Below are positions 33,512 through 63,971 of a stretch of DNA of 64,000 nt, one piece after another. Location: assembly GCF_024223415.1 (NCBI RefSeq), contig NZ_CP100500.1; one strand, written 5' to 3'. The notes under the pieces were generated by a model. That model saw nothing but the letters and a program-made list of their open reading frames with translations, was not told the origin of the DNA and did no database searches. The translations under genes and the position numbers were made by a program. Within the stretch, counting starts at the first letter, position 1. Each line of letters opens with the position of its first letter. Origin of the DNA: Escherichia coli. GTDB lineage: Bacteria > Pseudomonadota > Gammaproteobacteria > Enterobacterales > Enterobacteriaceae.

Positions 33512-33937
33512 ATGGAGATACGCGTATTTCGCCAGGAAGATTTCGAAGAGGTCATCACCCTTTGGGAGCGTTGCGACTTGCTGCGTCCGTGGAACGATCC
33601 GGAAATGGACATCGAGCGTAAGATGAACCATGACGTCAGTTTGTTTCTGGTCGCTGAGGTAAACGGTGAAGTGGTCGGAACGGTGATGGGCGGTTATGAC
33701 GGGCATCGCGGGTCTGCTTATTATCTTGGCGTGCATCCAGAGTTTCGTGGGCGTGGAATTGCCAATGCGTTGCTTAACCGGCTGGAGAAAAAGCTGATTG
33801 CTCGCGGCTGCCCGAAAATTCAGATCAACGTGCCGGAAGATAACGACATGGTGCTCGGAATGTATGAACGCCTGGGATATGAACACGCCGACGTGCTGAG
33901 TCTGGGTAAGCGTTTGATTGAAGATGAAGAGTACTGA
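33512..33937 (+). CDS. ypeA: GNAT acetyltransferase YpeA (141 aa)
   Basis: ORF 33401-33937; start set at [10 protein letters not shown]; GNAT motifs. Confidence 0.8.
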
Positions 33938-57517: not shown

Positions 57518-58444
57518 ATGAATTATTCTTTAAAACAATTAAAGGTTTTCGTCACAGTAGCGCAGGAGAAAAGTTTTAGTCGTGCAGGAGAGCGTATCGG
57601 CCTGAGCCAGTCGGCAGTAAGTCACAGTGTGAAGGAGCTGGAAAATCATACTGGTGTTCGCCTGCTGGACAGAACCACGCGTGAAGTGGTGCTTACAGAT
57701 GCAGGGCAGCAGTTGGCTTTGCGTCTTGAGCGACTGCTGGATGAACTTAACAGCACGTTGCGCGATACCGGGCGTATGGGGCAACAACTGAGCGGAAAAG
57801 TTCGGGTCGCTGCCAGCCAGACCATTTCCGCGCATCTTATTCCGCAATGCATTGCTGAAAGCCATCGCCGCTATCCAGATATTCAGTTTGTCCTGCACGA
57901 TCGTCCGCAGCAGTGGGTGATGGAAAGTATTCGCCAGGGAGATGTCGACTTTGGCATCGTCATCGATCCAGGCCCAGTGGGCGATCTGCAATGTGAAGCG
58001 ATTCTTTCCGAGCCTTTCTTTCTGCTTTGCCATCGGGATAGCGCTTTGGCCGCGGAAGATTATGTACCCTGGCAGGCATTACAGGGAGCGAAATTGGTGT
58101 TGCAGGATTACGCGTCAGGCAGCCGACCGCTGATTGACGCAGCGCTGGCGCGCAATGGTATTCAGGCGAATATTGTGCAGGAGATTGGACATCCGGCGAC
58201 GCTGTTCCCGATGGTAGCCGCAGGCATCGGCATCAGTATTCTTCCCGCACTGGCGCTACCATTGCCTGAAGGTAGCCCACTGGTGGTAAAGCGCATTACG
58301 CCGGTTGTTGAACGCCAGTTGATGCTGGTGCGCAGGAAGAACCGTTCACTTTCCACCGCCGCTGAAGCGTTATGGGACGTGGTACGAGACCAGGGCAATG
58401 CGCTAATGGCTGGTCGGGAAGGGGATCCGTTGTATCAGATATAG
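57518..58444 (+). CDS. yfeR: LysR-family transcriptional regulator YfeR (308 aa)
   Basis: N-terminal LysR HTH; divergent from yfeH. Confidence 0.85.
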
Positions 58445-58776
58445 ATATCGATATGAGTCGTATTTTCAACAGGATTTAGAAGGGATACATTCAGAGACAA
58501 ACGCTGCTCTTTCTCCTGCGCCTTTTCTGCCTGCTGTCTCTGCAACTGCGCCAGTTGTGTTTCCAGTAGGGTGATTTGCTGTTGAATCAATTCGGCCTGT
58601 TTTTGCTTGTCTTCAGCACTGCCGCCAGTGTCTACAATCTCTTTAATTTGTTGAGTGAGTTTGATGATTTGCTGACTTATCCGCGCGATTTGTGAAGCAA
58701 CATCGCTACCTTGTGATGCCCTGTTACTACTCTGTGTTTGTATGGAAGGAATTGAAGTTGAAGAGATAGTGGCCAT
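58435..58776 (-). CDS. FlxA-like small coiled-coil protein (113 aa)
   Basis: ATG 58776 with SD gagga 8 nt upstream; S/T/Q-rich N-terminus then Q-rich coiled coil, resembling the FlxA family; AT-rich relative to neighbours; 10-bp convergent overlap with yfeR. Confidence 0.6.
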
Positions 58777-58804
58777 TGTTCAGTCCTCGTCACTGTACGA
58801 GGTA

Positions 58805-58831
58805 ATATCGGTAGAAGAACAAGGAACTTGA
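58805..58831 (-). promoter_or_regulatory. candidate sigma28 (FliA) promoter for the FlxA-like ORF
   Basis: Coding-strand TCAAGTTC-N11-ACCGATAT versus consensus TAAAGTTT-N11-GCCGATAA (6/8 and 6/8, correct spacer), about 28 nt upstream of the ATG. Confidence 0.4.
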
Positions 58832-58852
58832 GAAGAAAAATCAATCTTACAA

Positions 58853-58913
58853 ATCGCAGATAGCAAAAAAGCGCCTTTAGGGCGCTTTTTTACATTGGTG
58901 GGTCGTGCAGGAT
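58853..58913. repeat. 61-bp direct repeat, copy 1 (lysV 3-prime end plus terminator)
   Basis: Identical to 59009-59069: atcgcagatagcaaaaaagcgcctttagggcgcttttttacattggtgggtcgtgcaggat. Confidence 0.85.
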
Positions 58914-59008
58914 GACTCGCTTCGCTCGCCCTTCGGGCCGTCGCCGCGAGCGGCTCCGTTGTTTCGCTGCGCTCAACTCGAACCTGCTGCAGGTTCGAAT
59001 CTTTGAGT

Positions 59009-59069
59009 ATCGCAGATAGCAAAAAAGCGCCTTTAGGGCGCTTTTTTACATTGGTGGGTCGTGCAGGAT
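59009..59069. repeat. 61-bp direct repeat, copy 2 (authentic lysV 3-prime end plus its terminator)
   Basis: Includes the last 18 nt of tRNA-Lys and the rho-independent terminator hairpin gcgcctttagggcgc with its T/A runs. Confidence 0.85.
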
Positions 59070-59127
59070 TCGAACCTGCGACCAATTGATTAAAAGTCAA
59101 CTGCTCTACCAACTGAGCTAACGACCC
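59052..59127 (-). tRNA. lysV: tRNA-Lys (UUU)
   Basis: Minus strand reads GGGTCGTTAGCTCAGTTGGTAGAGCAGTTGACTTTTAATCAATTGGTCGCAGGTTCGAATCCTGCACGACCCACCA. Confidence 0.95.
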
Positions 59128-59131
59128 GAAG

Positions 59132-59207
59132 TGGTGGGTGATGACGGGATCGAACCGCCGACCCCCTCCTTGTAAGGGAGGTGCTCTCCCAGCTGAGCTA
59201 ATCACCC
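59132..59207 (-). tRNA. valY: tRNA-Val (UAC)
   Basis: Minus strand reads GGGTGATTAGCTCAGCTGGGAGAGCACCTCCCTTACAAGGAGGGGGTCGGCGGTTCGATCCCGTCATCACCCACCA. Confidence 0.9.
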
Positions 59208-59253
59208 ACTTCGGTACTTCACATTTTTACAAGAAATTTAGCTGGTGAGAAAG

Positions 59254-59329
59254 TGGTGGGTGATGACGGGATCGAACCGCCGACCCCCTCCTTGTAAGGG
59301 AGGTGCTCTCCCAGCTGAGCTAATCACCC
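59254..59329 (-). tRNA. valX: tRNA-Val (UAC)
   Basis: Identical tRNA-Val(UAC) sequence, second copy. Confidence 0.9.
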
Positions 59330-59373
59330 ACTTCTCAATTTCTTGCTACACGGCGGAGACTACATATAGTAGT

Positions 59374-59449
59374 TGGTGGGTGATGACGGGATCGAACCGC
59401 CGACCCCCTCCTTGTAAGGGAGGTGCTCTCCCAGCTGAGCTAATCACCC
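59374..59449 (-). tRNA. valU: tRNA-Val (UAC)
   Basis: Identical tRNA-Val(UAC) sequence, promoter-proximal copy. Confidence 0.9.
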
Positions 59450-59466
59450 CCGCTGTGTGGAGTCGC

Positions 59467-59494
59467 ATTATAGGGAGAGTTCAAAATGAGTCAA
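59467..59494 (-). promoter_or_regulatory. sigma70 promoter of the valU-valX-valY-lysV operon
   Basis: Minus strand TTGACT-N16-TATAAT followed by a GC-rich discriminator (gcgactcc), about 18 bp upstream of valU. Confidence 0.6.
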
Positions 59495-59707
59495 CGCATT
59501 TTCTAAAGAAATTGTTCGTTCGTCGTAAATTTAAGCAAGATGATCGCAAAACAGACCGTGTTGCGCAATTTGTCAACGAAAACAATAATGCGTAAGGTTG
59601 CAACCCGAACTACATTGAGGAATCAGGCGGGAGTGATAGAATATCGCCCACTCAATTTTTCCAGGATTTGCCGGTTGTCGGCATCTTTCTAAACGTAAGG
59701 CCATTTC

Positions 59708-63895: not shown

Positions 63896-63971
<76 letters not shown>

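Follow-up and report, generated by a model that had tools for sequence, protein, structure and literature searches.

The lysV locus and its repeated unit

In the stretch of Escherichia coli DNA analysed here (hereafter the window; 64,000 nucleotides of contig NZ_CP100500.1), the val-lys tRNA operon ends with lysV, a tRNA-Lys(UUU) gene whose last nucleotides, together with the terminator that follows them, occur a second time a short distance downstream. The operon lies on the minus strand in the order valU-valX-valY-lysV (ARAGORN, Rfam), with lysV at 59052-59127 (Rfam tRNA model, 79.2 bits) and the three tRNA-Val(UAC) genes upstream of it at 59132-59449 (ARAGORN). A repeat search recovered two 100% identical, directly oriented copies of a 61-nt sequence, the proximal one at 59009-59069 and the distal one at 58853-58913, with a start-to-start distance of 156 nt. 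Because a perfect 61-mer repeat has an expected number of ~1e-27 in 64 kb by our own estimate, the duplication is not a product of chance.

On the minus strand, each repeat consists of ATCCTGCACGACCCACCA (lysV nt 59-76), AATG, the hairpin AAAAAAGCGCC-CTAAA-GGCGCTTTTTT and GCTATCTGCGAT, so that the proximal copy comprises the final 18 nt of lysV and 43 nt of downstream sequence, terminator hairpin included. The first intrinsic terminator hairpin occupies 59021-59047, and the second, identical to it, closes the unit at 58865-58891. Both have the form A6-GCGCC-CTAAA-GGCGC-T6, that is, a GC-rich stem-loop followed by a run of T6, and are symmetrical, so that to judge from their sequence they could act on both strands. 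A consensus promoter and terminator scan of the window reported neither copy, because extension of the stem through the flanking A/T runs consumes the T tail; the terminators were accordingly assigned from the sequence and from the published description of the operon (PMC4176162).

Between the repeats lies a 95-nt body (58914-59008), which, again on the minus strand, starts with ACTCAAA (59002-59008) directly after the proximal repeat and continues with a palindrome (59001-58978) made of GATTCGAACCTGC (58989-59001), a single A (58988) and GCAGGTTCGA (58978-58987). The first arm resembles a T-loop with its 3' T-stem strand and is complementary to lysV nt 49-61, whereas the second is identical to tRNA-Lys nt 49-58, namely the 5' T-stem strand and the first five T-loop bases, as also aligned by R1, a covariance model built solely from the Lys-linked 25-unit alignment described below. 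There follows a 64-nt GC-rich core (58914-58977; R1 match, 78 bits) of four consecutive hairpins supported by covariation, A (58961-58977), B (58939-58958), C (GCCC-GAA-GGGC, 58928-58938) and D (GCGAAGC, 58919-58925), and then the displaced copy of tRNA-Lys nt 59-76 with which the distal repeat opens (58896-58913). The T-arm of tRNA-Lys is thus present in the unit as nt 49-58, core and nt 59-76, split between nt 58 and 59, and the 156-bp module as a whole is composed of a terminator, T-arm remnants, the four-hairpin core and the copy of nt 59-76. Neither ARAGORN nor the Rfam tRNA model called a tRNA in 58853-59051. The first-pass annotation of this DNA had described the 61-bp repeat as the last 18 nt of tRNA-Lys plus 43 nt, the palindrome between the copies and the succession of intact tRNA, repeat, short insert and displaced 3' tRNA fragment; on all of these points our analysis agrees with it.

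Family identity and copy number in E. coli

An Rfam scan of 58400-59600 assigned 58896-59021 (minus strand) to the RtT family, RF00391, with 51.6 bits against a gathering score of 45 and a match spanning model positions 1-130 of 130; a scan of the whole window at the gathering threshold returned the identical match. The element starts 31 nt past the CCA end of lysV, on the same strand as the gene, and its last 18 nt are identical to lysV nt 59-76 at 18 of 18 positions. Such a 3' end is the hallmark of the tRNA-linked repeats (TLRs), in which the last 18-19 nt reproduce the 3' terminus of whichever tRNA or rRNA gene lies upstream (PMC8144298). It was downstream of tyrT that the first TLR was noticed, in 1978, and a catalogue of 1999 listed 22 of them in K-12, distributed over ten loci (Egan and Landy, 1978; Rudd, 1999; Stenum et al., 2021, PMC8144298). 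RF00391 corresponds to these repeats, its RtT RNA being rttR of the tyrT operon. In a BLAST search of 5426 complete E. coli genomes, strain EC974 was 100% identical to window positions 58700-59200 and K-12-type genomes matched 58850-59200 at >99% identity, the whole structure included; in RefSeq the matching stretch is annotated as 'RtT sRNA' (small RNA) in both. The duplicated lysV end and its 95-bp filling are therefore an already known and annotated element which is also present in K-12, and the earlier suggestion that the structure sits exactly where this genome departs from K-12 has to be withdrawn: similarity runs ~11 nt past the distal repeat, beyond which the flanks (FlxA-like here, xapR in K-12) diverge. 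We are confident that the lysV element is one copy of the TLR/RtT family, an assessment that covers both its identity and its behaviour at the DNA level.

The kinship of the lysV unit with other TLRs was tested with model R1, which aligned all four hairpins in the tyrT RtT copies, of which there are four, and scored these at 64-71 bits, three arg-linked TLRs at 39-47 bits and the 5S-linked TLR of rrnB at 14.6 bits (E = 0.011), the last being a weak match. Judged by these sequence-based scores, the core is common to the lysV unit and the tyrT, arg and rrn repeats, which are related. A candidate further copy in the window, at 33532-33600, reached only 11.9 bits (E = 0.4) and was taken as a chance match. 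At the window edge lies a tRNA-Ala(GGC) gene (63896-63971, plus strand), probably the first gene of the alaX-alaW pair that is seen near the val-lys operon in other genomes; within the window, no RtT match was found beside it.

The number of units at lysV varies among E. coli strains. Alleles with no unit occur in Nissle, on an xapR background, and in O157, on an FlxA-like background; K-12 and the window carry one unit; and two units are found in F437 (xapR), H8 (FlxA-like), H18 and H193, all cited as examples only, since a synthetic query meant to count 2-copy alleles reaches 100% coverage on single-copy alleles too. The lengths of the alleles are separated by exact multiples of 156 bp, with exactly one repeat left in the 0-copy form. 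With locus-specific queries, at least one unit was detected at lysV in 2309 of the 5426 complete genomes and after lysQ in 2507; 3242 carry a unit at one or the other locus, from which it follows by arithmetic that ~1574 have both and 2184 neither. At first pass, universal presence in E. coli, K-12 included, had been regarded as the mark of an ancestral, probably terminator-related duplication: the unit is indeed found in K-12, but it is not universal. Since 57% of the complete genomes lack it at lysV, the element, and any role that it has, would appear to be dispensable. The changes in copy number (0, 1 and 2) are readily accounted for if unequal homologous recombination takes place between the 61-bp direct repeats.

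The unit found after lysQ is near-identical to that at lysV, terminators included (K-12 lysQ-nadA spacer, locus L007, 2654-2809; also L133). Homology of the 0-copy lysQ allele stops at ...TTTTTTGCTAT, and the heptamer CTGCGAT, which forms the first 7 nt of the unit, is present in the flank of 0-copy lysV alleles, whereas at lysQ it is found inside the unit only. Because CTGCGAT belongs to the lysV flank yet is absent from the 0-copy lysQ allele, the sequences suggest that the unit has been exchanged between lysV and lysQ via their shared tRNA-plus-terminator homology.

Beyond the distal repeat, a 113-aa FlxA-like open reading frame (58435-58776, minus strand) lies outside the repeated structure, between yfeR (57518-58444, plus strand) and the lysV repeat, at the place where K-12 has xapR-xapB-xapA-yfeN. 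The FlxA-like and xapR flank types are each found with 0, 1 or 2 units, and replacement of the flank is for this reason independent of the repeat.

Structure, relatives and origin of the core

Covariation in the core was assessed on an alignment of 25 units with <90% identity to each other, against a hand-written structure consisting of hairpins A-D and two T-stem pairs. Standard pairs fill 92.8% of the cells, as opposed to 25-38% when the 3' partners are slid by 1-3 columns, and 13 of the 21 pairs display changes on both sides; none of 500 shuffles reached these values. When 150 copies were realigned by the covariance model, 94.4% of the cells were paired and double changes were seen in 15 of the 21 pairs, in an alignment which, being fitted to the model, leans towards the structure. 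RNAalifold applied to a plain MAFFT alignment of 104 units recovered almost no structure, because differences in loop length misalign the hairpin arms. The 95-nt body itself folds more stably than shuffled sequence (z = -2.6). In a strand test, 22 sense G.U cells stood against 76 A.C mismatches, 72 of the 76 A.C cells being confined to two columns and probably representing inherited states. The covariation shows that the core is under structural constraint across Enterobacterales and is compatible with a structure at the level of either RNA or single-stranded DNA.

Several of the hairpins are closed by GNA loops, namely GCGAAGC (58919-58925), GCCC-GAA-GGGC (58928-58938) and GC-GCA-GC within 58961-58977, and hairpins A and B each contain one tandem G.A/A.G mismatch. 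The heptamer d(GCGAAGC) is an unusually stable DNA hairpin, and it is a possibility that the core structure matters as single-stranded DNA.

In the short forms of the repeat and in the tyrT copies, the sequence that precedes the core on its 5' side could pair with the beginning of the local 3' copy, being the reverse complement of its first 8-10 nt: GGGGAAGGAT pairs with ATCCTTCCCC in Tyr-linked units, GGGAGGAT with ATCCTCCC in Arg-linked units and GTG(A/T)AGGAT with ATCCTGCAC in Lys-linked units. Since the 5' segment complements the local 3' copy in all three cases, the closing helix tracks the identity of the tRNA. In or after the argV-argQ cluster of K-12 (locus L129, 2163-2931), which has csrA beside it, there are three short-form repeats with tRNA-Arg 3' ends, the 5' closing segment GGGAGGAT being complementary to the Arg 3' copy.

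Relatives were sought with the core motif joined to an intact Lys 3' end across 100,044 bacterial and archaeal species, each represented by a single genome. The scan yielded at least 120 stretches and is thus a sample of taxa rather than a census, with a bias against decayed copies introduced by the requirement for an intact 3' end. Among the matches listed, nearly all named records belong to Enterobacterales, including Photorhabdus, Citrobacter, Enterobacter, Klebsiella, Pantoea, Erwinia, Serratia, Pectobacterium, Dickeya, Edwardsiella, Providencia and others, and a few metagenome-assembled genomes (MAGs) are labelled as Proteobacteria only. Units composed of a terminator and a TLR follow val-val-val-lys in Enterobacter cloacae (two copies), Leclercia, Citrobacter and a Klebsiella sp. 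As the same position after val-val-val-lys is occupied in these related genera, comparison of the operons shows the module to be old at the position after lysV in Enterobacteriaceae, and because the element is old at this locus, the 0-copy alleles of E. coli are most simply regarded as losses.

The most complete relatives occur in several Photorhabdus species, Chimaeribacter and one MAG, where the units are full-length tRNA-Lys genes: nt 1-58 (GGGTCGTTAGCTCAG...GCAGGTTCGA) are followed by the core, which stands exactly between T-loop nt 58 and 59, and then by nt 59-76. In Photorhabdus, ~5 to 13 such interrupted tRNA-Lys units are arrayed with a period of ~175 nt and without terminators between them, arrays of nine or more being among these (loci L069, 8672-10420; L011, 5424-7855; L068, 1588-2392; L009/L010). 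The arrays stand at the 3' ends of orthologous operons, L068 reading val-val-val-lys-lys and then five units. Pectobacterium units keep the tRNA sequence from the anticodon loop onward, those of Enterobacteriaceae and Erwiniaceae keep only the T-arm half (nt 49-58 and 59-76 in E. coli), and from the short TLRs inside the lysT operon and between the arg genes the T-arm half and hairpin A are also gone. The tyrT copies share the junction in tRNA-Tyr terms, with AAGGTTCGA, core and ATCCTTCCCCCACCACCA in succession (GGTTCGA, core, ATCCTTC). Within a sample biased by the demand for an intact 3' end, all four stems and the UUU anticodon are intact in 13 of 43 full-length units, and the other 30 have broken acceptor or D stems. 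ARAGORN called two Photorhabdus units as 73-nt tRNA-Lys genes. From their broken stems, the full-length interrupted units look like decaying pseudogenes rather than working tRNAs; a minimum-free-energy fold of one Photorhabdus unit, in which the acceptor stem formed and no clean cloverleaf did, was given no weight.

The simplest reading of this series would be that TLRs are tandem tRNA gene copies which received an insert at T-loop position 58/59 and were eroded from the 5' side. The lysV module would then be the eroded remainder of a tandem tRNA-Lys copy, split at T-loop nt 58/59 by a structured insert of ~65 nt, and, the unit being a split tRNA-Lys copy, its shared 3' end would reflect common descent from a tRNA gene rather than an att (attachment) site. 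The first-pass annotation had also entertained a tRNA pseudogene or a small structured RNA; nt 49-58, the covarying core, nt 59-76 and the RtT match speak for that part of it, while a cloverleaf recognizable to tRNA finders is lacking. Extended to the whole RtT/TLR family, that is, all members being 5'-eroded tRNA copies with a covarying ~65-nt four-hairpin module at T-loop 58/59, the proposal is tentative, and we place it a little short of probable. If it holds, the module would represent an insertion element that targets the T-loop or else a structural domain selected on a tRNA scaffold, and the tRNA-copy origin would account for a puzzle now 48 years old, the presence in every TLR of a 3' end made of 18-19 nt from the gene upstream. 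We found no description of the T-loop junction or of the full-length interrupted tRNA-Lys arrays in the literature covered, to which Rudd (1999) and the tyrT papers of 1978-1991 do not belong; both observations may be new, and we hold their novelty with moderate confidence.

Expression, alternative explanations and comparison with known systems

The val-lys operon is preceded by a sigma-70-like promoter, TTGACT-16-TATAAT (59467-59494, minus strand; 11/12 matches, assigned by consensus match only). In K-12, transcription of the operon yields an RNA of ~438 nt that stops at the first terminator, RNase P removes the lysV terminator by cutting 3 nt after CCA, and the lysV and lysQ terminators are identical (PMC4176162). 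Because this transcript ends at the first terminator, any expression of the lysV unit would need read-through: lying between twin terminators, the unit would be transcribed only when the first is passed, and the resulting RNA would end at the second. The enzymes that mature lysV would probably cut this RNA back to the copied tRNA 3' end, leaving an RtT-like product ~125 nt long.

The origin and RNA steps of this account are less certain than the identity and DNA-level behaviour of the element, and several considerations weigh against it. Northern blots of K-12 reported no read-through species. The covariation across genera argues for some selected structure, which is awkward for a purely neutral relic, and the extra T-arm-like segment at 58989-59001 is not explained by this account. 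Furthermore, the full-length Photorhabdus forms could be secondary, having arisen by recombination between the T-arm of a real tRNA and a TLR, and recombination as the cause of copy-number change is itself deduced from allele structure rather than observed.

Among the alternatives, the one that fares best, although it too is unlikely, is a functional sRNA gene, the product of which would couple some process to transcription of the tRNA operon, either as an RNA sponge or by binding a global regulator, for instance Hfq or CsrA; it is compatible with the main reading given above. The twin-terminator layout recalls rrnA, rrnB and rrnD, where T1 stops ~87% of transcripts and the read-through RNA of the 5S-linked TLRs undergoes processing and, in vitro, is bound by Hfq and CsrA (PMC8144298). 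The compensatory changes that maintain the four hairpins across Enterobacterales and the stability of the body fold are also as expected of such a gene. Conversely, the unit is missing from lysV in more than half of the complete E. coli genomes and varies in copy number, the K-12 operon transcript stops short of it, and the covariation does not separate RNA from DNA structure. Deletion or overexpression of the rrn TLRs had modest effects only, and the original RtT phenotype has since been retracted (PMC8144298).

It is less likely still that the core of ~65 nt represents a small mobile element, past or present, of the non-autonomous kind. It would insert in tRNA genes without target duplication, directly 3' of TTCGA where the T-arm hairpin exposes its loop, and TLRs would be the products of such insertions; one candidate mover is a transposase that acts in trans on single-stranded DNA, as in the IS200/IS605 or RAYT group. 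In Lys- and Tyr-derived units alike the core stands exactly at 58/59 and lacks a target-site duplication, and copies are present at several RNA genes; both observations are in line with this scenario, as are the GNA-looped GC-rich hairpins of the core, short GC-rich hairpins being the type of structure recognized by single-strand DNA enzymes. Nevertheless, no transposase emerged as a candidate, TTCGA by itself occurs much too often to account for the confinement to tRNA genes, and the orthologous positions of the units across genera favour vertical descent over active movement. Outside tRNA and rRNA operons, no copy was found in the 64-kb window or in ~0.9 Mb of loci which had themselves been chosen as tRNA-linked. 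A mobilome preprint recorded rttR with raised coverage and without circular DNA.

The unit could also be imagined as a back-up terminator that insulates the FlxA-like or xapR gene from a very strong tRNA promoter, with the 95 bp serving as a meaningless spacer. Two identical, strong hairpin and U-tract terminators 156 nt apart, together with the twin terminators of rrnA/B/D, lend this idea some appeal; yet the 95 bp belong to a conserved, covarying family and more than half of E. coli genomes make do with a single terminator at lysV, all of which renders it improbable.

The reading put forward at first pass, namely, a decayed attL/attR scar of a phage or island once integrated in lysV, with the 61-bp repeats as att cores and the 95 bp as the last remnant of the island, is very improbable. 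It had several attractions: the direct repeat includes the 3' part of the tRNA gene and begins inside the T-loop, at nt 59, where many P4-type integrases reportedly cross over, and strains differ in the flank beside the element (xapR or FlxA-like). The same unit is, however, present in K-12 and on both flank backgrounds, and units are repeated in tandem, 0, 1 or 2 times in E. coli and up to three or more times in other genera. The repeat extends 43 nt past the tRNA end, terminator included, and the core parts the two T-arm halves, which an attR would hold contiguous. Specificity for the locus fails as well, a near-identical unit being present after lysQ and related cores after internal lysT-operon, tyrT/tyrV and argV-Q genes and 5S rRNA. 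No integrase or other element genes lie between the repeats, either in the 95 nt of the window or in the sampled classes of the 5426 genomes, which hold only 0, 1 or 2 units there, no islands having been found at lysV in these classes. Alleles that step in exact multiples of 156 bp, with one repeat left behind in the 0-copy form, do not fit the coming and going of an island. A scan of viral contigs offered no attP counterpart, its two stretches both being host flank: one is a val-val-val-lys operon, and the other lies next to the end of a Mu-like transposable phage.

In locus L132 (7595-12712), a Mu-like phage end encoding MuA-like (696 aa), MuB-like (308 aa) and repressor-like (182 aa) proteins adjoins three Lys-type units, which looks like ordinary transposition beside an array rather than site-specific integration.

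Finally, a small arginine-rich peptide similar to K-12 tpr, the 'protamine-like protein' annotated inside tyrT RtT, was considered for a 28-codon frame (58976-58890, minus strand; LSAAKQRSRSRRRPEGRAKRVILHDPPM) that is in the same register as tpr and shares RPEGR with it, and was rejected as scarcely credible, given that TTG is the sole possible start, that there is no ATG and no visible ribosome-binding site, that the similarity probably just follows the nucleotide homology of the core, that the frame crosses the tRNA 3' copy and that substitutions in the family preserve base pairing.

For the window itself, the element carries little weight: its family was catalogued decades ago, it is found in K-12 and it is absent at lysV in over half of the strains. 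It should be reported neither as an integration scar nor as a strain-specific difference. At lysV and lysQ, the variation between 0, 1 and 2 copies amounts to a small structural variant, prone to recombination, that can mislead assembly, strain comparison and the prediction of att sites at tRNA genes. Its wider value is as an entry point into the under-studied TLR family, for which the comparison offers a concrete and testable origin of the copied tRNA 3' end, namely, insertion of a structured segment at T-loop 58/59 in tandem copies of a tRNA gene; the Photorhabdus arrays represent a natural system in which to ask whether interrupted tRNA-Lys RNAs are made, processed or used.

Set against known systems, the lysV unit shares with the att repeats of tRNA-integrating phages and islands a direct repeat running from the T-loop to CCA and a displaced 3' tRNA fragment downstream, and differs from them in being tandem, in overrunning the gene, in its split T-arm and in its lack of an integrase, cargo and phage counterpart. 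The Photorhabdus-type units parallel the intervening sequences of 23S rRNA in Salmonella and Yersinia and the non-canonical tRNA introns of archaea in that a structured insert occupies a loop of a stable RNA; unlike those, they give no sign of excision or splicing, and 30 of the 43 have broken stems. To our knowledge, the archaeal splicing endonuclease is absent from bacteria.

The closest parallels are the TLRs of K-12 (RF00391), with which the lysV element has in common its location downstream of a tRNA gene, the exact 18-nt 3' copy and the four-hairpin core of the tyrT copies. Its repeat measures 61 nt rather than 18-19, since the unit also holds the terminator, and, in contrast to the tyrT and internal lysT-operon TLRs, it stands behind an intrinsic terminator, outside the main transcript. 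The 5' T-arm half and hairpin A, both missing from the short internal Lys and Arg TLRs, are kept in the lysV unit. The 5S-linked repeats rrA, rrB and rrF, located between T1 and T2 of rrnA, rrnB and rrnD, resemble it in having twin terminators around the repeat, a 3' end that copies the upstream RNA gene and weakly related hairpins B-D (14.6 bits), and it is for these rrn copies only, not for the lysV unit, that binding of Hfq and CsrA has been shown. They differ from it in that T1 and T2 are unlike each other, whereas the lysV terminators are identical copies, and in that the copied 3' end is that of 5S rRNA, whereas in the lysV unit it is that of tRNA-Lys.

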